DNA of 64,000 nt from IMG/VR virus record IMGVR_UViG_3300028027_000047, positions 1 through 64,000 of that record; one strand, written 5' to 3'. The notes beneath the pieces were generated by a model. That model saw only the letters and a program-made list of their open reading frames with translations. It ran no database searches and was not told where the DNA came from. Position 1 is the first letter of the stretch; every line of letters starts with the position of its first letter. Below are positions 1,508 through 42,046 of the stretch, piece by piece. Both the position numbers and the translations under genes were made by a program. This DNA is from a virus.

Positions 1508-3313
1508 ATGAAAATACATGATGGAACGACCTGGCAAGAGGCTAAATCATTAAGAATTAATAATGGTTCTAGCTGGGTTTCTGCTGCCAAAGGCTGGGTG
1601 TACGACAATGGATGGAAGTTATCATATCCAAACTACCCTGTACTATCTTCTGGTTTTCTTTCAATTTCTGGAACACCAGTGGCTACAGTAGGAACAACTT
1701 ATACTGCAAATATAGTATGGCTAGTAGATCCAGCATATTTAGCATCTTCATATTCTTATAAATGGTACAGAAGCGGAACATTAATTTCTGGAGCAACTTC
1801 ACAAACGTACCTAACAGTAGTTGCTGATGTTGATAAAATAATATCATGTAGAGTAGAAGCAACTAATGCTAGAGGCACGACCTCGGTTTTACTGGAAACT
1901 GGAGCAACAATACTTCCAAGAATAGCAACCATGGAAGCAGCATTTGACACGACCCTAACCCCCACAGCTACAGTATCTTTAAGTGTAAATGGCTTGTCAT
2001 ATTCAGGATCTTGGTCTTCTAGCAATGCCACAACAGTTTCAATTAGCTCAACTAACGGTCAAGCCTACCCAGATTCATCTGGTGCATCTGGTACGTATTC
2101 TGGAATTGGCTCAGCTGGACCGATTAGAGTAGATGCAAGCTTAACAAATACTAGAAAAAGAGTTTACCTTCAGTGGTCTGCAGCACCAGGAGCAGCATCT
2201 TACGATGTAATCAAGTATGGCAATAATGTTGAAACAAAAGTAAATATTCCATCAAATCAAACAAGCTATATATGGGATAACATTGCAGACGGCAACGAAA
2301 CAAATTATTTTTCAGTATATCCAAAGTCAGCAGTAGCTGGAACAGGATATGGTGTTGTGCAGACTGTCACAGCTTCAAATAAATATGGATCAGCTTCAGC
2401 CTCATCTTCTCTTTACGAGCCATATCCTACTGCCCCAACTAATGTAATTGGTAGTGATGATTCCAGTGCAGATAGTGGATCTTTTTCTTGGTCTGCCTCA
2501 ACTTCGCCAATAGGTAGAACCATACTATATCATTCATATACAATAAATCGAGATGGTTCATATTATACATCTGGAACTACTACTGGTACAAGCGTGGCAG
2601 TTGCTTCAACAGGATCATTCACTATATCTGTAACTGGTTTTGATGGAATATGGACATCAAATGCAGGAACTGGCAGTGGAACTTTTACGGTAAAATCTCC
2701 AGGAACTCCATCTCCTTCTACAAGCGGAGCAGCATATAACCAATTTAACGTATCATGGACTGCAATTACAGGTGCATCATCTTACTCCGTAAAGGTTGGA
2801 ACATCTGCATGGGGAAGCAATATTTTAGACACAACAACAACAAATACCTCTGCAACAATTTCAGGTCTATCTGCCAGCACAACATATTATGTAACAATTG
2901 CTGCTTATAAAAATGGATATGGGTATGGATCAAATGGATATACCACAGGAACTACTACGGTAGATCCAACAGTTAATATATCTGCCCCCAACGTTCAATT
3001 TGAAAGAACTGCAACGCAGATAAAATGGGGAATAGATAATGGATATTGGACAGGACCTTTTGATGCATATGGCATAGAGTGGGAAGTTAGAACAGGGGCA
3101 GGCAGCGGAACAGTTATAACTTCTGGAAACACTATAAACTATACAACAACCATGACAAAGGGACCCGTAAACGGCTATTCTTGGAACTACTGGGTTAGAT
3201 CCACCACAGACCTCCCATACAGCTCCTCTCCAAGATATCTAAGAGCAAGAATGTATGGGTATAATTCGGCTACAAATACATTTGTAGATGGCACTTGGTC
3301 AGGTTGGTCTTAA
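1508..3313 (+). CDS. Ig-like/fibronectin type III repeat virion protein (putative adhesin)
   Basis: YSYKWYRSG...ISCRVEATN Ig-like block; FN3 signature VSWTA...YSV...ISGLSASTTYYVTIAA; Ser/Thr/Gly-rich. Confidence 0.75.
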   Translation: MKIHDGTTWQEAKSLRINNGSSWVSAAKGWVYDNGWKLSYPNYPVLSSGFLSISGTPVATVGTTYTANIVWLVDPAYLASSYSYKWYRSGTLISGATSQTYLTVVADVDKIISCRVEATNARGTTSVLLETGATILPRIATMEAAFDTTLTPTATVSLSVNGLSYSGSWSSSNATTVSISSTNGQAYPDSSGASGTYSGIGSAGPIRVDASLTNTRKRVYLQWSAAPGAASYDVIKYGNNVETKVNIPSNQTSYIWDNIADGNETNYFSVYPKSAVAGTGYGVVQTVTASNKYGSASASSSLYEPYPTAPTNVIGSDDSSADSGSFSWSASTSPIGRTILYHSYTINRDGSYYTSGTTTGTSVAVASTGSFTISVTGFDGIWTSNAGTGSGTFTVKSPGTPSPSTSGAAYNQFNVSWTAITGASSYSVKVGTSAWGSNILDTTTTNTSATISGLSASTTYYVTIAAYKNGYGYGSNGYTTGTTTVDPTVNISAPNVQFERTATQIKWGIDNGYWTGPFDAYGIEWEVRTGAGSGTVITSGNTINYTTTMTKGPVNGYSWNYWVRSTTDLPYSSSPRYLRARMYGYNSATNTFVDGTWSGWS

Positions 3314-3516
3314 TGATGTATAATATTATAACAGCAGAAGAAAAGATTTTTATTATAAACACATACTTAAAAAACCTAAATGGTGAAAAGTATACGCTTA
3401 ATAATAAAATAAACGTAGATTTGACTCAAGATGAGATTTCAGAGATAAACTCTGCCATATCTTTAATTGAAGAAAAGATTCAAGCTATTGAATCGGAAAA
3501 AAGAAATATAAACTAA
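3313..3516 (+). CDS. Small coiled-coil protein (possible fibre chaperone)
   Basis: TAATG coupling to the upstream gene; similar pattern to the next ORF. Confidence 0.6.
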   Translation: MMYNIITAEEKIFIINTYLKNLNGEKYTLNNKINVDLTQDEISEINSAISLIEEKIQAIESEKRNIN

Positions 3517-3526
3517 GGAGAATACA

Positions 3527-3730
3527 ATGACTACATACACAGCCCTAACTAATGATGAAAAAGCAGCAATTGCTCAAGGAGAAATAAGAAACCTAGAGTA
3601 CCAGATGTATGCACTTGAGGTAAAGCTTATTGCAGAAAATGCAAAGTCCACCCCAGATGCAGAAACAATTGCAGCACTAAACACATCAATTGCAGAAAAG
3701 CAAAGTCAAATTGCAGCGGTTATTGCTTAA
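3527..3730 (+). CDS. Small coiled-coil protein
   Basis: AAGGAG Shine-Dalgarno upstream; heptad pattern. Confidence 0.75.
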   Translation: MTTYTALTNDEKAAIAQGEIRNLEYQMYALEVKLIAENAKSTPDAETIAALNTSIAEKQSQIAAVIA

Positions 3731-3783
3731 ATTATAATTATACATAAGATATAATTAGTTTATGCAATACGCCAGGAGGCAAC

Positions 3784-29007: not shown

Positions 29008-29340
29008 ATGGCAAGTACAGTATATGATGTTGAAGAAATTCAACTAGCAAATGGCGCAACAGTTAAACTTAAGCCTTTAACAATTAAAGAGCTTCGTAAG
29101 TTTATGATAGTCATTCAAAAGACAGCAGAAGTAACATCAGAAGACGAAACACTAACAATTTTAATTGAAGCATGTGCAGTGGCTTTAGAAAAGCAACTCC
29201 CAGAGCTAGTTAAAGATATTGACGCATTTGAAGACACACTTGACGTTCCAACAATCAATCGCATTCTTGAAGTATGCGGAGGAATTAAGATGGACGACCC
29301 AAACCTACTAGCGGCAACAGTACTGGCTGGTCAGAACTAG
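29008..29340 (+). CDS. Tail assembly chaperone (G-like)
   Basis: Lies between major tail and tape measure genes; AGGAGG SD. Confidence 0.85.
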   Translation: MASTVYDVEEIQLANGATVKLKPLTIKELRKFMIVIQKTAEVTSEDETLTILIEACAVALEKQLPELVKDIDAFEDTLDVPTINRILEVCGGIKMDDPNLLAATVLAGQN

Positions 29341-29681: not shown

Positions 29682-32600
29682 ATGGCAGATAATATAATAA
29701 CGACCAATATTACAGCCCACGCAGACTTCACGAGCTTAAGAGCTCAGCTAGCTGCGGTTACTGCCCAACTCATAAAACTGCAAGAAACAACAGCGGGAAC
29801 AAACGCAAAACTAGCAAATCAAATTGCTGTAATGAACAAGTCGTTTGCAACAACGCTAACATCAACAGGACAGTTCTCGCAACACTTTGTATCCCTATCA
29901 TCAGACGTAGACAAGTTCGGAAAGAACTTAGATAGAGGCCGTCTCAAGCTCAACGATTATTACAACGCTTGGAGCGGCCATACAAAGAAGACAAGCAATT
30001 TAATTAGAGACTTAGCTAAGCAGCAGGTAATGCTGCAACAGGCTATAGTTCAGCCTGTAGGCAAAAATGCACAAGGACAAATGCAATACAATGTCATGGT
30101 TGCAAAAGGTCTTGATGAAATAAAGAACAAGATGGCTATTGCTCGACAAGAAGCCGCAATAATGAACAAGGTAATGCTTGACGGATCAACAGGTCTTATT
30201 AACTGGGGTAAAAATACTCAATGGGCTGGTCGTCAGCTTACAGTAGGACTAACTGTTCCTTTGGTTATGTTCGGAGCGGCAGCACAAAAAGCATTCAGAG
30301 AAGCAGACGCAGAATTAGTAAGATTAACAAAAGTTTATGGAGGGCTTGCAGCAACTTCATCTGCAGATCTGGCACAGGTAAGAAAAGATGTAACAGCCAC
30401 AGCTAGGGAAATTGCTGGATCCTACGGTGTTGCTTATAAAGAAACAATTGCACTCGCTGCAGACCTAGCAGCAACTGGACAACAGGGTAATGAATTAATC
30501 GCAGCCACACAGCAAACAACTAGACTTGCAGTTCTTGGTGAAGTTGATAGACAAGATGCAATGAAAGCAACTCTTGCTATTCAGAATGCATTTAAGCAAA
30601 ACACAGATGAACTCGCACAATCAATCGATTTCCTTAACGCAGTTGAAAACCAGACTTCCACAAGCCTTGCAGACCTGACAGAAGCTATTCCAAAGGCAGG
30701 GCCTGTAATTAAATCTCTTGGCGGAGATGTAAAAGATTTAGCTCTCTACCTTACTGCAATGAAAGAAGGCGGAGTAAATGCATCAGAAGGTGCAAACGCA
30801 ATTAAGTCAGCAATGGCATCACTTATTAACCCAACTAAAGTTGCAACAGAGCAGTTTGCTGGATTTGGAATTGATCTAAAAGGAATTGTAAATAGTAATG
30901 CTGGAGACTTAACTGCAACAATATTAGAATTGCAAGGAGCTCTAGACAAACTTAATCCTCTAGATAAATCAAGAGCAATTGAACAGCTATTTGGCAAGTT
31001 CCAGTTTGCAAGAATGTCGGCGTTATTTGAAAACCTAGGAAAGTCTGGATCACAAACACTTCAGGTAATGGACTTAATGAAGGCTAGCGTAACAGACCTA
31101 GCAGCAATTTCAGATCGAGAATTAAAGATGATGACAGAATCAGCCTCTGGGCAGTTCAAGAGAGCTTGGGCATCAGTTCAAGCAGACCTAGCTGGCGCAG
31201 GAGAGCAATTCTTAAGAATAAGCACAAAGGTATTAAAAGTTGTCGACTCAATTATAAAGTTTTTCCAGAAGCTTCCAGAGCCAGTTAAAACATTATTAAA
31301 TGTATTAGGAGGTTTCACAGCAATTGCTGGACCTCTTATTATGTTGGCTGGTGTTATGGGCAACTTTATTGGATATGTAATCAAGGGAATATTCCATCTA
31401 AGACAATTAGCAAAGGGTGGGCAAGGATTTAAATTATTAACACCAGAGATCATCGCCGCAGATGCTGCTGCTAAAGGTCTTGCAACATCGTTCTACTCGG
31501 ATACAGAAGCAACTATTGTTTTATCTAATGCAGTAAATACACTTGCAGAATCATTTATAAATCTAGAAGCAAAAGCAAATGCAGCCAAAGTATCTGTTCA
31601 GCCAGCAGTATCAACAGTAGCAGGCGGAGTAATTATGGCAGCAGGACCCGCTGGAAGAATGGTAGATAAAAATAATCCACTAGTTGGTGCACCATATTCT
31701 AGAGATATGTCTCACTTAATTCCATCTGGAAATCCACAGGCAGGAACAATATTTGGAACAGTACCAGGATCAAAGCCAGTAAATATAAGAGTTGGCAGAA
31801 ATCCACAGGCTTATATGGACAGTGATCTACCAAAAATCCCTGGACTAACATCAATAGGAGGAACCTCCACAGGAATTGTTGCAGCAGAAGCTGCAAAATG
31901 GCATGCAATGACAGCCGCTATTGCTATGCAATCTGAAGCAGAGCTTAAGATGCTAAAGGCGGAAGTGATGGCAACAGGAACTGTTACATCAAGCTTATCT
32001 GATTCTTACCAAGCATTGTTGCCAGAGTTTAGCCAGATAACAGACCTTGCAGCAAAAGAAACTGCAGCAATTGTTCAGCAAGTTCAGCAAAGTAAAATAA
32101 CAGTAGAACAAGCTAGAGCAAGAATTATTTCATTAAATGCAACCGTAGAAGCAATGCTTGCAGAAACAACAAGACTAACTGCAGCGGGAATGGGCAGAAC
32201 AGCAAACCTAGGAACAGTACCACTAACCTCTCAGCCAGTAGTAGATCCAGTTACAGGAAAGTCTAATATGAAAGAGATGTTTCATAAAGGACCTACAAAA
32301 GCAATGGTTGATAGAATCGCAAGAGCTCTTGGCGGGGTAAGAACTTCTGGTGCTGGATACAACATAGAAACAACAAAGCCAAAGTTTGCAAAAGGTGGTT
32401 TTGTTCCAGGAACTGGCGACACAGATACATACCATACAACAGCTGAGCCTGGATCATTTGTAATCAATAAAGCTGCTACTGAAAAGCATCTACCATTAAT
32501 AACAAATATTCTTGGAGGCAAATCTTATTATGCACAAGAAGGTGGTCAGGTCCCAGTTGTATTAACACCTGGAGAAGCAGTAATACCAGCGCACATTGCA

Positions 32601-35600
32601 CAAAGAAATATGCCTTTAATGTACGAGCTAAACGGCGGACCAGGAAATACATCTGGGAGCGGTATGCACGAATTTGGTGGAGAAACAGCTTTTGAAAGAA
32701 GTCACGTTTCTGAAGCATCTGCTGCCGATCTAAAAAGAGTACGGGCAACAAGAGGATACGCTAATTCAGTAAGTGTTGGTAGAGGAATTCCGATTTGGAT
32801 GAGCAGAGATGCAAATCAACAAACTCGATCAGTCGGCAGCGGAATGACTGGACCGCAGCTAGCAAAAGAATTTAGAAAAGCAATTGCAGCAGGAAGACAC
32901 CCATTTGAGCCATGGATGACTGCAGCCCAAGGGCTGGGTGGAGATCCAAGAAATAACGCTCAATTTAATAAAGTATTTAACGAAATGCTTAAAAATCTTG
33001 AAAAAGATACAAGAGTATTTGGCGGTAAAAATGGAGTAATGACATTTGAAAAATGGTTTGAAAAAGAAGTAATTGGTTCTAAATCATTTAAAGATATAAG
33101 AGTTGGAGACAGGTCTTTTAGATCAATATTTAATTCAGTGCTACAGCCTATGGGGCCAAGAGATGGAAAGCCTATCGCGGCATTAGAAACGCTTGTTAAA
33201 TCCAGAAATGGTTTAACTACAATTGAAAATTCAAAATTGGCTGGCCTTGCAAAAGGAATGCTTGGAACATTCAGCGGAAGCTCATTTAATGCAAGCAGAC
33301 AAAGACTTGCCATAATGATGTCAAGAGCATTTCTTAAAAGAAATGCTGGAGGATCTATTCCTGGAGGAACTGTAGAAAAGGGAAGATACGGATACGGTAA
33401 GCCTTTCTTTATTGGTATGCCTAAAACTATCAAACAAGTTGAAGAACAAAGAGCAAAAAGAGTTGCAATGGAAAAAGCAAACGAGGCAGTTACCAATTCT
33501 AGATTTGCAAAGACTCCAGTAACTCAATACGGAGAGATGCTATCCCCTACTTCAGGACGCAGCTTCCCTGTTCCAGGAGTTGGCGGACTCTATATGAAGG
33601 GCGATGAAAAAGTATTTGTAAAGCCAGTGTTAGACGAAAGAGCGGCAGTTGCAGAAATGAGAGCAACACAAATTGCTCGTGAGGTTCATGGATTACATGC
33701 TCCAACACAAAAAGTTGTTGTAATGAGAGACCCTACCGATCCAACTGGTAGAAGAAAGCTGTTAGCACTAGAATCTAAATTTGATCCAAAGATTGCAGCG
33801 ACAGATGCTAAGTTTACGACAGACGAATACTTTAGACAGCTAGTTGCATCAGCTTTACGTGGAGATAAAGATTTAGCAAGAGGTAATTTATCTGGAAACA
33901 TACTTTCAGACGTAGGGCCAGCTGGAGTATTCTCAGCAGCTTCTGGCCTCAGAGGATATTCAGCTGTCATGCCGTCAGTAAAAGATCAGGCTTATATAAA
34001 TCTATTAGGAAGAAAAGGCAGCGGAGCTAAGAAATTCTTTGCTGAGTCAACTCATCAAATACCAAAAGGTATGACCGCAGATGAATATCATAGCCGTATG
34101 CTTAAAGAAATTGAAAGCGCTTTGCCAAAGCTTAAGCAGACAGTCTCAAGATTTGATTTAAACCCAGAAGAAAAAGTTGTCTATGAGGCAATGATTAAAA
34201 GACTGTCTGATGCAAGAGGCGTCAATTGGAAAGAGCTTCATGGAATACACTCTGGTTTGCAGATGTCACCAGAAAAACAAATGACACCAGCGGCTATAGC
34301 AAAGATGGTAGCAGCAGATGAACTAAAGCGTAGACAAACTGGTCATTCAGCAAGTCTTTCAGACAATGCATTTAAAACTGATGCAAACGGATTTAGATTT
34401 GGCGGATTGCTTGAAGCATTAACAAAAGGCAAAGCAATGCATAAAATTGGTGCAGGATTTGGAAAAGATTCTACTGGCGGATGGGGAGTAACGTCCTTGC
34501 AAATAGGAATGGCCGAAAAGCTTTTTGGGTCTACTGGACTAACTAAGAGAACTCAAAAAATTCTATACGATAAATTTGCAGCCGAGCTTGCTAAAGAAAT
34601 GCCGTATGGATACTCAAAGAATGCACAAGGACATTTAGTAAAAGCATTAGAGCCAGACATTATGGACTCTGTAATAAGATCCGCAGCCTCATCCACTCTA
34701 TCTGCACCAGAGGGAAGAAAGGTTCTTTCTGTTATAGATAGAGAAATACTTAGAAAGAAGTTTGCAAATTGGGAATCTAAAAAAGATACACCGTTAACAG
34801 AAACTTTAAAACAGTTGGTTTTCGGAATAGAAAAAAGAGAAATGGGCGGACCAGTTAATGCAGGCCAGCCATACATTGTTGGAGAGAAGGGGCCAGAACT
34901 ATTTGTTCCAAGAAATGCTGGTGGAATAATTCCAAATGGATATAAAGCTGGAGGATCTATTCCAAATGGCTTTAGGTTTGGTGGAATAATCCCAATGCTA
35001 AAGCAGCTATTATTATTTTTTGGAATACAGCAAGGTGCAAATTATGCTGGCGATAAAGTTGGCGGAACCAGCGGAGATGCAATTAAACAAGTTGGAAACA
35101 TCCTTCCATACTTGGCTATGGGAAATATGATGAATGCAGGTGCAGGAAAAGGCGCAAGCGTTATGGGCGATAAATTTATAAAAGCAAGAACCCCAATGTT
35201 TGCAGTTGGATCTAATAAAGTTCTTGGTACACCACAGTTAACTAAATACGGAACAATGTTAAGCAAGCTAACTGGAAGCTCAAACCTTTTCAGCAAAGCA
35301 CTCGGAAAATCATTAAGTATATTTACACGATTTAATCTTGCACTCGGCACAGTCGCTACAGTAGGAAAGATTGCGTGGGATAGATGGCAGGCTCACAAAG
35401 AAGCCCTTAGACTAAATGCATTAGGATATGGCATGACTGCAGAAGCTGCAGAAAAAGCAGGCCTTAAGTTTACAAACTTTAATGACAAAATCAAAGAAGC
35501 GATCAATAATGCAAAGGCATTGAAAGAAAGAAATACTCTTTTATACGAAAGCATGCAAGGGTCTGGAACACCTATAGATGTAACTATTGAGGAGTATAAA

Positions 35601-38600
35601 AAGTTAAAAAAAGAAGTTAAAACTAATTATTCTGATCAAGTAGATTTAATTAATCAAACAGTTGATAAAGATCCAGAAAAACAAGCACAAAAACAAAGAG
35701 AGCTTGCCATAAGACTTAAAGAACAGTTAATTGCTATGGGCATGTCAGCAGAAGATGCGGCTAAAAAGATATATACGATGTACGCATTATCAGACCAGTC
35801 AGCAAATGCCGCTGCCTACACAGTTCGATCACAAGGATTTAATGACATAAAGGATACAGCGTCTGCTGCAGCATCTGCAATTGATAGTTTGACTACTGCA
35901 ATGGCAACTAACCGTAATGCCACAGAACAAGCAAATCAGCTAAATACTGCAATGATGGCTTTGTCTACGGATGTCGAGTCTAGACAAGCAAAAGCTTTAA
36001 AGGAAGCACGTAAAAAAGCAGCTAAGGATGGAACATACTTTTCAAGTGGTCAAGAAAAGCAATTAATGCTTGATCAAGAAAAAATTGCTATTGACGAAAT
36101 TAATAGACAAGTTAAAGATCAAGTTTACTTAACCAAAGAGGTCGTTGATGAGATGGCAAAAATTGACCCATCAATTAGACAAATAGTTAACGAGCAAGAA
36201 ACTGCTTTATCTTTATGGCAAAAAACAAGAATTCAGGTTAAGGGATACACGGGAGACTTAAGAGCCCTTAACGCAGAGCAGACAAATGATCTTTATAACC
36301 TTCAGATATCTTTAGGTAAAAAAGTTGAATCTGCCAACAGAGAAGGCGTATTGAAAAAGCAATATGCTGATCTAGACAGAATGTTACAGCTTCAGGCAAA
36401 ATATCAAAAGGCAGCAAGAGGACAATCTGTAGCAGATCAAATATCAGATAGAGATAAGATTGCTTCACTTCAAAAACAAATAGATGCAAACAATAAGCTT
36501 GCAGATGCAAGACTTAAGGCGCTAGATGCAGCAAAGCAAGAAGGCGATATAGGAAGAGAGATTGCAAAGAAGCAGGCAGAATATGATGCCGCACTTGCAA
36601 CTGGAAACATTGCTGGTGCTCAACAAGCAAGCCTTGATATACAAGGATACCAAAGTGAGCTTCAATATAACGCACAGAAAAAATCAATTGAAGATTCAAA
36701 TATTCTAAAGAATGTTCCACTTCAAAAACTAATTGAAGCCATACAGAGCAAGCAGCAAGGAATCTCAGACAATGCTCAATTAGCAGGAGAAAAGCTTGGG
36801 GATCTAAGTGGCAAAATTACTAATGCAGAAAGTTCTATTTCAGCAATAAATACTGCAATGCTTAATTGGCAAATTGAATTGCTAAAGCAGCCAGAAGCAA
36901 CAAGAGGCGCTTGGAAGTCAAGCGAAGCATCAAAGAAGATGCTCGCAGCAGTTGCTGACGCAGCAGAAAAAGCTGGAGTTAAACTTAATGGATTAAAAGA
37001 TCTAGACTTAGGCGCTGCAGTGGTTGCTAGCCTTGAAGGCAAGCTTGGCGCAATGAGCACTATAGATGTTAAAGGAAATGTTAGCATCTATGTCGATGGC
37101 AAAAAGTTTGAAATTGGTGGAAGAGGATCTGGAACAAAAGATGCTCCTTATGATTTAGGAAAAGCTGGTGTCGGAACAAACACGATCAGTAAAACAACTT
37201 TGGCAGATTGGTCAGGTCTTGGCGGGTTTGGTAAGTTAGGAACTAGACAAAAGGTTAAGAACATTGCAGAAGAAAGAGGAATTTTGCCTGGACAATTTTT
37301 CTCATTAACTGATAAAGATGAAAAAGTATTTGTATACAAGATGGACGACAGGGGCCAGATAATTGAAGTAACTGATCCTTACAAAAAAGCAGATGGTGGA
37401 CATATTAGGGGAGCAGGAACTGCAACATCTGATTCTATCCCAGCCTACTTATCAAATGGTGAATATGTAATTAAAGCAGACTCCGTAGCTAAGTATGGAG
37501 TAGACACATTTGATGCATTAAATGCTGGCAAGTATGCACAAGGTGGCCCTATAAATCCAACCCCTCAATCTAAGCATAATAGCTCATTTGGAACTGGCAC
37601 ATCAAATATAAATGTAAACATGCAGGGCGGAAAGCTAATGGGCCCAATAGAGGCATGGCAAGATGCTAATAAGCAGGTTATTAAAATTGAAGTTCCACCA
37701 ATCACAGCTAATTTTGCTACAAACTCTTACACATTAAATAAAGAGCAAAGACTAGAACTTCAGGCAATCGCTAAAGATCTTATTAAACATAAGCTGGCAT
37801 CAATAGTTGTTCAAGGACACACAGACTCTGTAGGTAAAGGAAAAGACAACAAGATCCTTTCACAAAATAGAGCAAATGCTATTGCAGAATATATGTCAAA
37901 GTTTGTTCCTGGTACAGCATTTACGCCAGTGGGATACGGGGAGTACAGACCTCTTGTTCCAAATACAACTGCCGAGAACAGAGCCAGAAACAGAAGAGCA
38001 GAATTATTCCTGCCTGATAAATACAAAACAATTTATCCAGAGTTTATTCCAGAAAAGCATAAAAACTTTTTAAGTAAAGGCAAAATAGAAGGCGGCGGAA
38101 GCATTGGTCCAAGCGGCGGAAGCATTGGTCCAAATGGTACATTAGTTTCTGGCGGATCTATGGAGTCTGTTATTGACTGGGGCAAGCTATTTAAGAAAGT
38201 TAAAAAAGCTATTGGTTTCCACACAGGCGGCGAAGTGGGTCATCGTCACGGAAGAAATCTGCCGAAGACTAAGAGTAAGTATAAGACAGTAGATCAATAC
38301 CGTGAAGAAAATGGCATTGGCTCTCCAAATGCTGTGACACCAAATGGCAACACGTCAGGTATGCAACCTGGGGATAAATGGAATAATAGACATCTAACCG
38401 AATCATTTATAAAACTAATGCTTACCAGTGCAATGCCAGGATCTTCATTGCTTAATCTCTTGCCAAAAAATATAACAAATTCTATGGTAGATCCAGCGTA
38501 CTCAATTTTAGGGCAGCCATTTGAAGAAATATTTGCAGGAAGCGGAACCAAGGGAGATTGGTTAAATGCAGGCTTAACCTTTATTCCATTTGGAAAACTT

Positions 38601-41360
38601 GGATCATTAGTAAAAGCAGTTCCTAAAGCACTAAAAACAATTAAGCAAATACCTACAGCAATTAAAGTTGGACAAAAATTAAAGGCTGGAAACTTTGACG
38701 ATCTAATAAATATAGGAAAGTCCACAGCAGGAAAGTCAAGGCCGTCTATAATGCAGGCAGCCGATGGATCTGTACATTACATGAAGATTATGCAGGATGT
38801 AATGGAAGGTGCATTTGAAGTAACTGGCTCTACAATAGCTAAAAGATTTAAAATGCCAAGTACCGACAACATCTTGGGCACGTGGAAGAATTTATCTGTC
38901 ATATTAAGTAAAGATTTTGCATCAAAGGGAATGAAAACACTAGAAGACGCTGGTGCGATGTTGCCACATGGATTCCTTGACATGGATTGGCTTAAAGCCA
39001 ATGCTTCAATGAAGAGCTTTGGAAAGATGAGAGCAGTTTCATCTATACTAGGCCACGGAGACATGCATCCAGGAAACCTACTGCTTAAGGGCAAAAAAAC
39101 TCTTGGAGCATTTGACTGGGGAATAATAGATAATTTAACCAACCCAGCTGAAACAGCATTAAAGGCTGGCAGCACTTTAGTTGGAAAACAAGCTTCTCAA
39201 TTTACTAAAGGATTTGCTTCTGTAAGAAAGTCAATAGCAAAGCAGGGCCCAGAAAAATTTATAGACGATATCTTAACTAAGAGCGGAATAACTGATGAGG
39301 GTCAGCTAAAGGTCCTTCGTATTGTACTTGAAAGAAATATAAAGTCATTATTAGACTTAAAGATTCCTGGCAGACTGCATAAGGGTGGAGCAGTAGGACA
39401 CAGACATGGAAGATCTGTTCCAGAAAAGAAAAATTGGTTTCAGAATTATGTTTCTAAATTAACAAAATCTCAACAGGATGCAGGAAAGATGCTCCCGTCT
39501 TTTATGAGAATGAATGGTAAAGCAGATGCTTTAGGTGCAGGGTCCATATTAAGAAATTTAGCTGGACAAGGCGAGAAAGGAGATACTTTAAATTCAATAC
39601 TTTTCCCATTAAACTTTATGGGAATGGGGTCTGCCAAATCGGCACTGGCAAAGCCGACAGCAAATGTAGCAAAACAGGCATCTTCAGTTGGTGCACCTTT
39701 AATTAGAGCGCTTAGTAAAATACCGTCTCTTGGAAAGGATCTGTTAAAGTTAGGCACCTGGAACACTTTAGGTAAAGTAAAGCCACTTCAAAGTAGTTTA
39801 TATAAAGCAATAGGCTTTAAACCAGATAGTCTAATTCGTAAGTTTAAAAATGCTTTTGACTATACATCAAAAACTGGAAAATCTTATTTTGAAGATATAA
39901 TTAATAAACCAACCCCACCGCCAAGGCGCGGCGGACCAGGTGCCCCACCAGGGCCTGTAACTGACGCCACAAGCGAGGTTGATGATTGGTTAGCAAACTT
40001 GCCTCCATCTACACTACATCCCATGCAAGCATTGGGAGAGGCCGCAGCGGCAATGAAAAATAAATTTATAAACCCAGTCATGACTCCATTAAAAAATGGA
40101 GTTGGTAAATTAACTTCAATGTTCTCAAAAGACAATATCTCACAAAAACTTTTAAAGTTTTCACCAAAAATGATATCTGATTTTCTTTACAGATACACCC
40201 CCATAGGAAGTATTCAGGCACTAAGATCAACACAAAAGATGAATATGAGCAAAACTACAGCCGACACAGGCTTAGGTCTAGACCTTTCATTAGAAGAACT
40301 TTTTAAACAAGATTTTTATCATGGAGGAAGCTTACCAGAAGACCTTTTAAATAGATTAACGCCATCTTCTAAAAATGTTTCTTTAAACGGAAACATATTT
40401 AATTTTGATTTATTTGCTACTGTAGAAAAAATAATGGCAAGAGAGTATGCAATAGGCAAAAATGCAGAAAGTGGCGGATCGTTATGGAAAACTTTATTTA
40501 GAGTCCCAGAAGACATGTCAAAGGTATGGGATATGCGAGGTGGAGCTCCTTCTCTATGGTCACAAAACAAAAAAGGTTATGCGGCTGTAGAAAAATATTT
40601 TATTGATGTTTTAAAAATGTCAAGAGAAGAAGCAAGAGAGATGCTAGCTGGAGAAAGGGTACCAGGCGTAGCAAGGCTTAGCAAAGCGTTAATAGACAGG
40701 CTATCTTTATTCCAGGGAGAACATTTAAACGAAGCATTTTCCGTAAATGGAAAAGGTGGTCCAAAATGGTTAATGGACACTATTGTTCATACTGGTGGAA
40801 AACTAACAAATTCCGACACATTCCATGCCGTTGTTGCCACTCTAGACCCAGAAAACCGTATAAAATTATTAAAAAATATATTGCCAAAAACAGAACTTAT
40901 AAAAAGCCATGGAGTTCTTGATGAATTTTTGCCTTCTACTCTTGAAAGATTTATAGAGCAGTATGCAAAATATGGAAAATCTTTTAAACCACTGCTAGAA
41001 GGAATCTGGCCAGCTAGACATAACTCAACAGCCGTTGCTACAGGCGGATATGTTAGTAATGGAAAAATTTCTATTCCTAAATTTGAAACTGGAATAAATA
41101 GTGTTCCTGTAGATATGCTTGCTATGCTTCATAAGAATGAAGCAGTAGTTCCTGCTAACATGAACCCCTTTAATCCAAACGCTAATAATGCTACAATGGG
41201 TGGAGCAACATATAATATTACAAATAACATTAATGGATTCGATGGGGATATAAATCAATTGTCAAATATAGTAACACAGAAGACTATCACAGCAATCAAG
41301 ACTCTTGATTCCCGCAATTCTAAAATGTCTGGCACATCAATGACAGTAGGAGTTAAATAA
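29682..41360 (+). CDS. Giant tape measure protein (3892 aa) with embedded enzyme/binding domains
   Basis: Follows the frameshifted chaperone. N-terminal TP901-type tape-measure core (GRQLTVGLTVPL, DFLNAVENQT) with hydrophobic segments; GG-motif-delimited inserts. Confidence 0.93.
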   Translation: MADNIITTNITAHADFTSLRAQLAAVTAQLIKLQETTAGTNAKLANQIAVMNKSFATTLTSTGQFSQHFVSLSSDVDKFGKNLDRGRLKLNDYYNAWSGHTKKTSNLIRDLAKQQVMLQQAIVQPVGKNAQGQMQYNVMVAKGLDEIKNKMAIARQEAAIMNKVMLDGSTGLINWGKNTQWAGRQLTVGLTVPLVMFGAAAQKAFREADAELVRLTKVYGGLAATSSADLAQVRKDVTATAREIAGSYGVAYKETIALAADLAATGQQGNELIAATQQTTRLAVLGEVDRQDAMKATLAIQNAFKQNTDELAQSIDFLNAVENQTSTSLADLTEAIPKAGPVIKSLGGDVKDLALYLTAMKEGGVNASEGANAIKSAMASLINPTKVATEQFAGFGIDLKGIVNSNAGDLTATILELQGALDKLNPLDKSRAIEQLFGKFQFARMSALFENLGKSGSQTLQVMDLMKASVTDLAAISDRELKMMTESASGQFKRAWASVQADLAGAGEQFLRISTKVLKVVDSIIKFFQKLPEPVKTLLNVLGGFTAIAGPLIMLAGVMGNFIGYVIKGIFHLRQLAKGGQGFKLLTPEIIAADAAAKGLATSFYSDTEATIVLSNAVNTLAESFINLEAKANAAKVSVQPAVSTVAGGVIMAAGPAGRMVDKNNPLVGAPYSRDMSHLIPSGNPQAGTIFGTVPGSKPVNIRVGRNPQAYMDSDLPKIPGLTSIGGTSTGIVAAEAAKWHAMTAAIAMQSEAELKMLKAEVMATGTVTSSLSDSYQALLPEFSQITDLAAKETAAIVQQVQQSKITVEQARARIISLNATVEAMLAETTRLTAAGMGRTANLGTVPLTSQPVVDPVTGKSNMKEMFHKGPTKAMVDRIARALGGVRTSGAGYNIETTKPKFAKGGFVPGTGDTDTYHTTAEPGSFVINKAATEKHLPLITNILGGKSYYAQEGGQVPVVLTPGEAVIPAHIAQRNMPLMYELNGGPGNTSGSGMHEFGGETAFERSHVSEASAADLKRVRATRGYANSVSVGRGIPIWMSRDANQQTRSVGSGMTGPQLAKEFRKAIAAGRHPFEPWMTAAQGLGGDPRNNAQFNKVFNEMLKNLEKDTRVFGGKNGVMTFEKWFEKEVIGSKSFKDIRVGDRSFRSIFNSVLQPMGPRDGKPIAALETLVKSRNGLTTIENSKLAGLAKGMLGTFSGSSFNASRQRLAIMMSRAFLKRNAGGSIPGGTVEKGRYGYGKPFFIGMPKTIKQVEEQRAKRVAMEKANEAVTNSRFAKTPVTQYGEMLSPTSGRSFPVPGVGGLYMKGDEKVFVKPVLDERAAVAEMRATQIAREVHGLHAPTQKVVVMRDPTDPTGRRKLLALESKFDPKIAATDAKFTTDEYFRQLVASALRGDKDLARGNLSGNILSDVGPAGVFSAASGLRGYSAVMPSVKDQAYINLLGRKGSGAKKFFAESTHQIPKGMTADEYHSRMLKEIESALPKLKQTVSRFDLNPEEKVVYEAMIKRLSDARGVNWKELHGIHSGLQMSPEKQMTPAAIAKMVAADELKRRQTGHSASLSDNAFKTDANGFRFGGLLEALTKGKAMHKIGAGFGKDSTGGWGVTSLQIGMAEKLFGSTGLTKRTQKILYDKFAAELAKEMPYGYSKNAQGHLVKALEPDIMDSVIRSAASSTLSAPEGRKVLSVIDREILRKKFANWESKKDTPLTETLKQLVFGIEKREMGGPVNAGQPYIVGEKGPELFVPRNAGGIIPNGYKAGGSIPNGFRFGGIIPMLKQLLLFFGIQQGANYAGDKVGGTSGDAIKQVGNILPYLAMGNMMNAGAGKGASVMGDKFIKARTPMFAVGSNKVLGTPQLTKYGTMLSKLTGSSNLFSKALGKSLSIFTRFNLALGTVATVGKIAWDRWQAHKEALRLNALGYGMTAEAAEKAGLKFTNFNDKIKEAINNAKALKERNTLLYESMQGSGTPIDVTIEEYKKLKKEVKTNYSDQVDLINQTVDKDPEKQAQKQRELAIRLKEQLIAMGMSAEDAAKKIYTMYALSDQSANAAAYTVRSQGFNDIKDTASAAASAIDSLTTAMATNRNATEQANQLNTAMMALSTDVESRQAKALKEARKKAAKDGTYFSSGQEKQLMLDQEKIAIDEINRQVKDQVYLTKEVVDEMAKIDPSIRQIVNEQETALSLWQKTRIQVKGYTGDLRALNAEQTNDLYNLQISLGKKVESANREGVLKKQYADLDRMLQLQAKYQKAARGQSVADQISDRDKIASLQKQIDANNKLADARLKALDAAKQEGDIGREIAKKQAEYDAALATGNIAGAQQASLDIQGYQSELQYNAQKKSIEDSNILKNVPLQKLIEAIQSKQQGISDNAQLAGEKLGDLSGKITNAESSISAINTAMLNWQIELLKQPEATRGAWKSSEASKKMLAAVADAAEKAGVKLNGLKDLDLGAAVVASLEGKLGAMSTIDVKGNVSIYVDGKKFEIGGRGSGTKDAPYDLGKAGVGTNTISKTTLADWSGLGGFGKLGTRQKVKNIAEERGILPGQFFSLTDKDEKVFVYKMDDRGQIIEVTDPYKKADGGHIRGAGTATSDSIPAYLSNGEYVIKADSVAKYGVDTFDALNAGKYAQGGPINPTPQSKHNSSFGTGTSNINVNMQGGKLMGPIEAWQDANKQVIKIEVPPITANFATNSYTLNKEQRLELQAIAKDLIKHKLASIVVQGHTDSVGKGKDNKILSQNRANAIAEYMSKFVPGTAFTPVGYGEYRPLVPNTTAENRARNRRAELFLPDKYKTIYPEFIPEKHKNFLSKGKIEGGGSIGPSGGSIGPNGTLVSGGSMESVIDWGKLFKKVKKAIGFHTGGEVGHRHGRNLPKTKSKYKTVDQYREENGIGSPNAVTPNGNTSGMQPGDKWNNRHLTESFIKLMLTSAMPGSSLLNLLPKNITNSMVDPAYSILGQPFEEIFAGSGTKGDWLNAGLTFIPFGKLGSLVKAVPKALKTIKQIPTAIKVGQKLKAGNFDDLINIGKSTAGKSRPSIMQAADGSVHYMKIMQDVMEGAFEVTGSTIAKRFKMPSTDNILGTWKNLSVILSKDFASKGMKTLEDAGAMLPHGFLDMDWLKANASMKSFGKMRAVSSILGHGDMHPGNLLLKGKKTLGAFDWGIIDNLTNPAETALKAGSTLVGKQASQFTKGFASVRKSIAKQGPEKFIDDILTKSGITDEGQLKVLRIVLERNIKSLLDLKIPGRLHKGGAVGHRHGRSVPEKKNWFQNYVSKLTKSQQDAGKMLPSFMRMNGKADALGAGSILRNLAGQGEKGDTLNSILFPLNFMGMGSAKSALAKPTANVAKQASSVGAPLIRALSKIPSLGKDLLKLGTWNTLGKVKPLQSSLYKAIGFKPDSLIRKFKNAFDYTSKTGKSYFEDIINKPTPPPRRGGPGAPPGPVTDATSEVDDWLANLPPSTLHPMQALGEAAAAMKNKFINPVMTPLKNGVGKLTSMFSKDNISQKLLKFSPKMISDFLYRYTPIGSIQALRSTQKMNMSKTTADTGLGLDLSLEELFKQDFYHGGSLPEDLLNRLTPSSKNVSLNGNIFNFDLFATVEKIMAREYAIGKNAESGGSLWKTLFRVPEDMSKVWDMRGGAPSLWSQNKKGYAAVEKYFIDVLKMSREEAREMLAGERVPGVARLSKALIDRLSLFQGEHLNEAFSVNGKGGPKWLMDTIVHTGGKLTNSDTFHAVVATLDPENRIKLLKNILPKTELIKSHGVLDEFLPSTLERFIEQYAKYGKSFKPLLEGIWPARHNSTAVATGGYVSNGKISIPKFETGINSVPVDMLAMLHKNEAVVPANMNPFNPNANNATMGGATYNITNNINGFDGDINQLSNIVTQKTITAIKTLDSRNSKMSGTSMTVGVK
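33555..34260 (+). other. Kinase-like domain 1 (HipA/PI3-PI4-kinase fold) within the tape measure protein
   Basis: GVGGLY, VFVK (Lys), AVAE (Glu), catalytic loop GDKDLARGN, DVG. Confidence 0.7.
37707..38010 (+). other. OmpA/MotB-like peptidoglycan-binding domain within the tape measure protein
   Basis: F.TNS..L...IVVQGHTDSVG...N..LSQNRANAI...GYGEYRPLVPN.T...RARNRRAE. Confidence 0.92.
38710..39360 (+). other. Kinase-like domain 2 (HipA-like) within the tape measure protein
   Basis: GKSRP...DGSVHYMK, AFE, LGHGDMHPGNLL, AFDWG. Confidence 0.8.
40311..40860 (+). other. ADP-ribosyltransferase-like domain within the tape measure protein
   Basis: FYHGG...LFAT....AREYA...GSLW...IVHTGG...HAV...DP pattern, as in polyvalent-protein ART domains. 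Confidence 0.55.
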
Positions 41361-42046
41361 TGGCACTAACCCTTCCGCTTGGATCCCTTATAACATTTGA
41401 AAACACATCGGTTACCCCTGTAGTCTGGCAGGCATTAAGCGAGCACAATAGGGCAAGTGCTACATTGGATATACAGAGAATTGAAAAAACCCAGAGAATG
41501 TCAAATGGAACATTAAGAAAGATATTTATTGCTGATAAAGACATGCTTTCAGTTAGTTGGGTAGGCTTGCCAACATATTCTTCTATGACTGTAGATGGAG
41601 CCTGGGGAGCTATGAACATTAAAGAGTTCTATGAGTCAGTTGCTGGTCAGGGTGCGTTTAATGTAAAAGTTTCTCCAAACGGAACCGCCTCAAGAGAAAA
41701 AACAATGATGATGTCATTCACATCTTGTAGTTTTACTGTTACAAAAAGAAATTTAAAAACGGGTGGAGTATTTAAAAATTCAAACATAACCGCTATATCG
41801 TATGCTGCTGGAGTAACAACATATACTGGTAGAAATAGTTTTGCAGTTGGAAATAAGATTAGCGTATCTGGAGCAACATTTGCAGCATATAACGGAGTAT
41901 TTACTATCACCGCAGCAACTCCAACATCATTTACTGTTGCAGGAACTATATCTGGAACACCTGCCTCATCAACGGCATCTGCTGTTACGGTTCTGCCAGA
42001 GGCGCAAGAATTCTGGGATGTATCTATAGCACTGGAAGAAGTTTAA
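41360..42046 (+). CDS. Distal tail protein-like, with an inserted beta domain
   Basis: Directly follows the tape measure gene; RMSNGTLRK...W and terminal WDVSIALEEV flank an ITAIS...FAVGNKI.VSG...YNG.FTI insert. Confidence 0.7.
   Translation: MALTLPLGSLITFENTSVTPVVWQALSEHNRASATLDIQRIEKTQRMSNGTLRKIFIADKDMLSVSWVGLPTYSSMTVDGAWGAMNIKEFYESVAGQGAFNVKVSPNGTASREKTMMMSFTSCSFTVTKRNLKTGGVFKNSNITAISYAAGVTTYTGRNSFAVGNKISVSGATFAAYNGVFTITAATPTSFTVAGTISGTPASSTASAVTVLPEAQEFWDVSIALEEV

Follow-up and report, generated by a model that had tools for sequence, protein, structure and literature searches.

Tape measure proteins (TMPs) are usually seen as rulers or channel formers with at most a wall-degrading motif, and the virus record IMGVR_UViG_3300028027_000047 raises the question of whether such a protein may also carry exchangeable enzymes in a phage tail. 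Within positions 1 to 64,000 of this record (the window hereafter), a region at 38214-40860 holds two modules which begin almost identically, and which a preliminary description, made from the sequence alone, read as a duplicated pre-toxin-like leader in front of a HipA-like kinase and an ADP-ribosyltransferase (ART)-like domain. The modules are indeed consecutive. What that description passed over in silence is that both lie inside a single open reading frame (ORF), 29682-41360 on the + strand, which encodes a protein of 3,892 aa (P0001), and the 'two modules' are thus consecutive parts of a giant TMP. It is proposed here, with a probability of about 60%, that the region is the distal, cargo-bearing part of this TMP and holds two tandem junction-leader-cargo cassettes, which recombine among uncultured phages and represent effectors carried in the TMP. 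Each cassette would comprise a junction motif, a leader core of ~70 aa and a cargo domain. The features concerned are as follows:

29682..41360, + strand: giant TMP gene, a single ORF, assigned by PhageMin_Tail, by PHROG TMP families and by a gene order as in phage BillNye
38217..38264, + strand: junction motif 1, FHTGGEVGHRHGRNLP (aa 2846-2861), conserved in the relatives P0003-P0007, P0010 and P0011
38442..38642, + strand: leader-1 core (aa 2921-2987), a divergent variant (117 bits with the L1 hidden Markov model, HMM), which includes the motif of the preliminary description at 38532-38603
38739..39251, + strand: cargo 1, a predicted atypical kinase-like domain (aa ~3020-3190), from sub-threshold Pfam matches, catalytic motifs and homologues
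39375..39422, + strand: junction motif 2, LHKGGAVGHRHGRSVP (aa 3232-3247), the breakpoint of cassette exchange from comparison with relatives
39423..39638, + strand: leader-2 core (aa 3248-3319), a canonical family member (80 bits, E 4e-27, with an HMM from distant proteins only)
39639..40286, + strand: N-terminal part of cargo 2 (aa 3320-3535), made up of predicted helices and a linker rich in proline, with conservation in the cargo-2 family; low-confidence fold model
40287..40886, + strand: conserved domain of cargo 2 (aa ~3536-3735), with a possible ART-like fold, from alignment A2 and weak structural matches
41025..41360, + strand: terminal GG motif and conserved C-terminal TMP piece (aa 3782-3892 plus stop codon), from comparison with relatives

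The carrier protein

P0001 has the N-terminal domain PF10145 (PhageMin_Tail, TP901 type) at aa 239-438 (E 2.8e-27, 96 bits against a cut-off of 33.2), and PHROG tape-measure families match its aa 20-842 with a best E-value of 9e-114. The gene lies between the major tail/chaperone genes (chaperone at 29008-29340) and the distal tail/hub genes, an order identical to that of Streptomyces phage BillNye. At 1.5 Å per residue, the fully extended 3,892 aa would correspond to a tail of ~580 nm. The TMP of BillNye is 2,102 aa long in comparison to 3,892 aa for P0001, and cassettes of the kind proposed would account for the great excess in length of some TMPs over those of cultured relatives.

Junction motifs

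The near-identical start of the two modules was reported at the correct positions by the preliminary description. It corresponds to FHTGGEVGHRHGRNLP and LHKGGAVGHRHGRSVP, which are identical at 12 of 16 residues and lie in the same frame of the one ORF, and the BLASTP match between the modules (E 1e-6) is owed almost wholly to this 16-aa motif. At DNA level, the two copies share 29 of 48 bases with a longest exact run of 6 nt, which indicates that it is the peptide rather than the DNA that is conserved, with selection acting on the peptide. Retention of the motif for homologous recombination within the gene at DNA level was rejected on the same figure. The tripeptide pattern H-x-H is found in the whole of P0001 only in these two motifs.

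The junction motif, [F/L]H.GG.VGHRHGR, is a shorter version of the GG motif which most TMPs contain (GG...SDSIPA). With a query of 60 aa around the latter, matches to annotated TMPs were obtained in 1,063 records of cultured phages, and by its PHROG matches this motif falls close to the C-terminus of ordinary TMP profiles.

The leader module and its family

A second pair of motifs common to both modules (aa 2951-2974 and 3293-3316), also pointed out in the preliminary description, was left unaligned by BLASTP. An HMM built from distant leaders only gave, beyond leader 2, a single further match in P0001, at aa 2951-2968 (4.8 bits, conditional E 0.0016), while hhalign of the leader-1 family against the leader-2 family gave a probability of 87% (E 4.5e-6, 22 columns). 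On this profile evidence, the second motif pair is homologous, but weakly, and the similarity of the duplicated leader is statistically significant. In a six-frame search of the whole 116-kb genome, the leader profile (A3) found only 39408-39722 (E 7e-41) and 38532-38687 (E 0.002).

The consensus of the leader is ~70-75 aa in length and consists of a GG motif, KKQNWFQRYVS.LTK, a variable loop and LLRK.AGQG.KGD.L.AA..PLNFMG.G, with K.NWFQ.YV, LR, GQ, GD.L and PLNF.G.G invariant in the alignment. Searched exhaustively with phmmer, 1.84 billion representative proteins yielded 25 matches, several of them limited to aa ~3230-3360 (P0019-P0033); P0024, P0029 and P0034 match the leader-1 core only. 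The module is present twice each in P0019 and P0022. A degenerate DNA pattern used on IMG/VR retrieved 19 loci, 17 of which are true leaders; the other two (L016 and L022) contain stop codons and were discarded as chance matches. A metagenome scan added 12 leader loci, all in ORFs extending >2,000 aa upstream and with the leader situated 400-900 aa before the stop codon, and a profile search of a collection of 5.8 billion proteins added 18 leader proteins, every one of them named 'hypothetical'. In total, 72 strong leaders were found in 68 giant TMP-like proteins or ORFs of uncultured phages.

Neither leader nor cargo had a match in cultured phages (megablast and tblastn of the cassette region), nor did DNA and protein searches of cultured phages return one for the C-terminal piece. 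Leader patterns in 185,579 bacterial species genomes gave 229 pattern matches, of which 0 were confirmed. To judge from these comparisons, the leader is a real, portable and unannotated protein module. Its 19-residue Kyte-Doolittle maximum is ~1.0, against 1.94 for the one clear membrane-like segment of P0001, and this modest hydrophobicity together with the invariant polar and aromatic residues suggests recognition by a partner rather than a transmembrane helix. A complex prediction for three leader copies scored 0.00, which speaks neither for nor against self-association.

It is worth mentioning that the leader-2 segment at 39540-39640 (LLR..AGQG.KGD.L....PLNFMGMG) resembles TK.DG.ARGGAALS...PI.F.G.GE of SRP54/Ffh, probably by coincidence. 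The match of the leader profile to the SRP54/Ffh G-domain motif among PDB sequences was non-significant (E 0.6) and was rejected.

Variable cargo and exchange of cassettes among relatives

A constant leader followed by a variable tip was the arrangement proposed in the preliminary description. The variability is borne out: the modules diverge into different downstream domains as judged by BLASTP and Pfam, and 60 non-identical leader-cargo junctions fall into 11 cargo groups, three of which occur behind both leader types, so that the leaders do not always precede the same domain. The word 'tip' does not hold, as the cargo is internal and is followed in all relatives by a conserved C-terminal piece of ~110 aa, which is 76-95% identical in relatives with a replaced cargo 2. 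The cassettes are thus insertions, flanked on one side by the TMP body, at whose end the GG...SDSIPA motif is found, and on the other by this C-terminal piece.

Comparison of individual relatives locates the exchange. P0004-P0007 are collinear with P0001 at 84-91% identity as far as aa ~3240, a position within junction motif 2, after which they are unrelated until they re-converge in the last ~110 aa. In P0002, the backbone is 55% identical and cargo 2 is 91% identical, with the similarity beginning at aa 3229, while P0003 has a backbone of 88% identity and a cargo 2 of 39% identity. P0010 and P0011 retain leader 1 with the kinase replaced, and two L1 variants occur before the same kinase. These contrasts in identity indicate that leader and cargo are separable units in a fine-grained mosaic, and on the alignments the junction motif is the commonest breakpoint of cassette exchange. 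Such cassette swapping among related phages suggests that phage tails deliver interchangeable enzymes.

Other cargo groups behind the leader include OmpA (E 3e-13), LysM and two further kinase-like types. Pfam recognised almost nothing in the alternative cargos of ten relatives and ten metagenome loci. By their sequences, the other cargo groups look like effectors or wall binders. Cargo group 1 has an R / S-T-[SN] / E pattern with weak matches to the ART-PolyVal family of Pfam (E 0.027 and 0.072). This is the largest group (L035, L036, P0026, P0033 and others), with the sequences LFKGVR / YFSTN / QGSMEF, typical of R-S-E ADP-ribosyltransferases, and it ends directly at the terminal GG motif.

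Cargo 1, a kinase-like domain

The catalytic loop of cargo 1 is HGDMHPGN at aa 3125-3132 (nt 39054-39077), followed by a metal-binding DWG loop at aa 3145-3147. The domain thereby shows the kinase-fold pattern of H.D....N and then D.G with an upstream Lys and Glu, and HYMK and the Glu following it are kept in P0017 at 48% identity. In Pfam, the best scores are those of ABC1 (E 3e-4, 20.4 bits, cut-off 22.9) and APH (E 0.0019, 18.4 bits, cut-off 23.2). HipA_2, the family which the preliminary description had in mind, gives 10.9 bits against a cut-off of 27 (E 0.27) and covers the N-lobe only, with 15.1 bits in P0017; the kinase catalytic loop is therefore upheld and the HipA specificity is not, since ABC1 and APH score better. 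PDB sequence matches at the catalytic loop are to an ABC1 protein and Ser/Thr kinases (E 0.3-0.45), and neighbours in the Atlas are hypothetical proteins of Bacteroidota and Verrucomicrobiota, Kdo and HipA_2. On these sequence features, cargo 1 is a predicted atypical kinase-like domain with a short C-lobe, and not specifically a HipA.

The polyvalent-protein kinase family, in which an insert separates catalytic His and Asp (PMC5512222), was ruled out for cargo 1, where H-G-D is contiguous with no such insert. The kinase domain is 96-98% identical in P0003-P0007, the leader-1 core before it 28-94% and the backbones 84-91%. Conservation of the kinase above that of backbone and leader has the appearance of a recent sweep or of very strong constraint.

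Cargo 2, a possible ART-like domain

The conserved core of cargo 2 spans ~200 aa, with ~25 invariant polar residues across 13 sequences of 26-95% identity. The invariant positions include H3547, R3558, D3576, F3578, T3580, Y3589, D3617, R3619, E3637, D3699, H3703 and H3715. The spacing of H3547, F3578 and Y3589 (31 and 11) is that of H-Y-E ARTs. A first fold model, covering leader 2 and cargo 2 (aa 3226-3781), reached a predicted local distance difference test (pLDDT) score of 43, to which misaligned leader-only proteins in the cargo columns probably contributed. The second, an AlphaFold model of the conserved domain, has a pLDDT of 59 and a predicted template modelling (pTM) score of 0.60. 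Foldseek against the PDB gave no match below E 0.3 for this second model. In the VIA structure search, which is independent of Foldseek, all Z-scores were ≤4, and six of the 19 top rows were ART-fold toxins (RhsP2, MbcT, NatT, ParT, VPA0770 and a diphtheria-toxin homolog), whose alignments cover 106-141 residues at Z 2.7-3.8. A second VIA comparison remained at Z ≤2.7, with the catalytic domain of diphtheria toxin at Z 2.1. The BFVD list for cargo 2 is led by polyvalent-protein and ART-PolyVal entries (best E 0.036), and the Atlas scores for ART-PolyVal and Diphtheria_C are 0.76-0.77. By hhalign, cargo 2 is unrelated to cargo group 1 (E 0.16).

The ART-like domain of the preliminary description is thus kept as a lead, with weak fold matches in its favour and no ART match at sequence level; the odds that cargo 2 has an ART-like fold are judged to be roughly even.

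Comparison with known systems

TMPs with embedded enzyme motifs are known, the precedents being the Rpf-like and peptidase motifs in the TMPs of mycobacteriophages TM4 and Barnyard and the muralytic C-terminal region of T5 pb2. The likeness is that of a functional domain within a TMP, carried by the tail and released at infection, and the GG...SDSIPA motif is common to the TMPs of >1,000 cultured phages. However, the domains of those TMPs act on the wall and occur once per protein, whereas P0001 has several cassettes with kinase-like and possibly ART-like cargo, each behind a dedicated conserved leader and exchanged between phages.

The polyvalent proteins of phages and conjugative elements are very large, multidomain and presumed to be injected, with kinase, ART and peptidoglycan-related domains (Iyer et al., 2017; PMC5512222). 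P0001 resembles these as a huge multidomain phage protein with cassette-like variability, in which several unrelated effector-type domains (OmpA, the kinase-like domain of cargo 1, the cargo-2 domain and a kinase-like region further upstream) are combined, and it is ART-PolyVal and polyvalent proteins that cargo 2 weakly matches in fold. Differences are that the leader is not among the domains described in that paper, which mentions tape measure proteins 0 times, and that ART-PolyVal is unmatched by sequence in this window.

In polymorphic toxin systems, a short conserved junction motif precedes a variable toxin, examples being CdiA (VENN), Rhs (PxxxxDPxGL) and LXG/PT-TG (Zhang et al., 2012; PMC3482391). 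As in those systems, the junction motif of P0001 stands where recombination exchanges the variable cargo. Unlike those systems, in which the toxin sits at the extreme C-terminus with an immunity gene downstream and orphan cassettes, P0001 has internal cargo and neither of the other two; beyond leaders 1 and 2, the leader profile matches nothing else in the 116-kb genome. The cargo is borne by a tail protein of the virion instead of a secretion-system substrate, and there is no pre-toxin HMM match.

Translocation of the type VI secretion system effector Tde1 requires a glycine-zipper region, which this effector has in common with the C-terminal part of Burkholderia TMPs (PMC10240207). The parallel is that, towards the C-terminus of a TMP, a brief conserved stretch is associated with the passage of an enzyme through a target membrane. 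The leaders differ in having no clear GxxxG repeat and in being weakly hydrophobic, and a sequence relation was neither looked for nor seen. None of the known systems compared brings together a TMP as carrier, a dedicated leader and exchangeable cargo of kinase-like or ART-like type, and full-text literature searches returned no description of such TMP cassettes.

Proposed role and alternative explanations

The TMP occupies the lumen of the tail, its C-terminus lying at the tip, and is ejected upon infection. From this orientation, the cargo would be the first part to exit the virion, and it may then act on the host envelope or in the cytoplasm, like the injected polyvalent effectors (PMC5512222). 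The leader could serve as an adaptor which a conserved partner recognises for packing into the tube, for exit or for release. An immunity gene would be unneeded, because the TMP is made late in a cell which is about to lyse.

Several results weigh against effectors carried in this manner. A tail lumen of ~4 nm has no room for folded globular enzymes, so that the cargo would need to refold after ejection. All kinase Pfam matches of cargo 1 are under the curated cut-offs. Sequence profiles gave no ART match in cargo 2 or the cargo-2 family, including to ART-PolyVal (PF18760), and the ART lead depends on matches of Z ≤4 to a model with pLDDT 59. The leader is unmatched in Pfam, PHROGs and PDB sequences, and the internal position of the cargo departs from the C-terminal tips of polymorphic toxins.

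The main rival is that junction motif and leader form a recognition or autoprocessing module, at which the TMP is cut by a phage or host protease or autocatalytically, freeing the cargo either as the tail matures or following ejection. Both lambda gpH and T5 pb2 are TMPs known to be cleaved, and short peptide motifs are strictly kept at every cassette border despite DNA divergence, the two HRH sites being unique in P0001. Polyvalent proteins have likewise been proposed to be processed (PMC5512222). However, a motif search of P0001 found no HExxH, Cys pair or serine-protease motif, Pfam and PHROGs gave no protease domain in it, and the D-P dipeptide of the leader is not conserved. The short database proteins which start inside the leader come from short contigs and look like fragments. 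Processing is considered an unlikely explanation. A second rival sees structural repeats only: in an extra-long TMP which measures out a very long tail, GG motifs and leaders would serve for packing, chaperone binding or register, the cargo would be a non-enzymatic length filler or wall anchor, and the mosaic would result from recombination at the best-conserved TMP sequences. The universal occurrence of GG motifs in TMPs and their number in P0001 (at least five) are in keeping with this, as are the OmpA or LysM wall binders, which are not enzymes, in some cassettes, the lack of a recognisable catalytic family in most cargo groups, and a leader hydrophobicity too low for a membrane helix. On the other side, the catalytic and Mg-binding motifs of the kinase are intact and conserved down to 48% identity, the kinase is more conserved (96-98%) than the backbone (84-91%), and cargo 2 holds its ~25 invariant polar residues across a wide range of identities. 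Conservation of this kind in the two cargos is not expected of filler sequence, and the structural explanation is accordingly considered quite improbable.

The pre-toxin reading of the preliminary description, in which the leader is a homologue of the PT-TG type and a membrane-translocation handle that moves the cargo across the cytoplasmic membrane, fares worst and is judged very improbable. Its grammar of a constant header and variable cargo holds, many leaders have a Gly-rich stretch after PLNFMG, and its observation that there is no adjacent immunity gene is correct, as the next gene overlaps the TMP stop codon and matches tail-protein PHROGs. The resemblance to pre-toxins was not recovered: Pfam at a permissive E-value of 10 gave only ABC1, APH and HipA_2 in module 1 and nothing in module 2, with no PT-TG (PF14449) or other pre-toxin family, although HMMER filters discard most matches above ~0.1 and a very weak PT-TG match could be missed at this setting. 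A hydrophobicity maximum of ~1.0, the lack of a clear GxxxG run in both leaders of this window, the internal cargo and the absence of an immunity gene and of orphan cassettes also speak against it, as does the fact that the same leader precedes OmpA and LysM domains, which act in the periplasm. In view of the glycine zipper in Tde1 and Burkholderia TMPs (PMC10240207), the leader may still have a membrane role.

If the proposal of tail-carried cassettes is true, a portable leader marking exchangeable kinase-like, ART-like and wall-binding cassettes would extend injected polyvalent effectors to the lumen of the siphovirus tail. It would define a new protein module with ~70 family members, none of which is annotated, and could provide a natural scaffold for the delivery of proteins into bacteria. 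More speculatively, and with doubts outweighing confidence, the giant TMPs of this clade of uncultured phages may form a tail-borne polymorphic effector system, the leader letting the tail carry, expel and hand over interchangeable kinases, ARTs and wall binders to the host before or with the DNA, with cassettes traded as a toolkit in an arms race.

Genome context and other features of the TMP

The record is a complete IMG/VR virus genome of 116,220 bp with direct terminal repeats, belonging to an uncultured siphovirus. The large ORFs of the window are all on the + strand, and the guanine-cytosine (GC) content is 31-44%. PHROG matches identify portal, major capsid, adaptor and Ig-domain tail proteins upstream of the TMP gene, and distal-tail, hub-like and spike proteins downstream of it. 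The nearest cultured phages are the Streptomyces cluster-BE phages (Stanwilliamsviridae), with a capsid protein 55-60% identical and the same gene order. The structural module is syntenic with these high-GC phages, even though the phage here is of low GC and its TMP is ~1,800 aa longer.

At the 3′ end of the TMP gene, its stop codon and the start of the following gene (41360-42046) overlap at 41357-41363, an arrangement that suggests translational coupling and leaves no space for an immunity gene. This following gene has a match to a PHROG without assigned function and a weak one to a major-tail-protein PHROG.

Two further features lie upstream of the cassettes:

37395..37469, + strand: the universal TMP motif GG...SDSIPA..LS.GE.V (aa 2572-2596), upstream of the cassettes, from a regular-expression map
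37713..37994, + strand: OmpA-type peptidoglycan-binding domain (aa 2678-2771), just before cassette 1 (Pfam OmpA, E 1.7e-18, 67 bits)

The GG...(SDSIPA)..GE.V motif, which ordinary TMPs have once and near the C-terminus, occurs in P0001 at aa 905, 955, 1722, 2572 and 3788 at least, bracketing unassigned domains, and the protein as a whole resembles a chain of modules bounded by GG motifs. The OmpA domain within the TMP, together with the OmpA or LysM domains behind the leader in relatives (L033, P0035 and P0038), hints at a host with a wall of the diaminopimelate (DAP) type and an outer membrane.

A second, unrelated kinase-like region is present in the same TMP at ~33550-34400 (aa ~1290-1570), with the motifs FVKP, GDKDLARGN and DVG. 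In P0001 it follows a GG motif without a leader core, while its homologue in P0021, P0022, P0032, L008 and L014 is situated directly behind a canonical leader.

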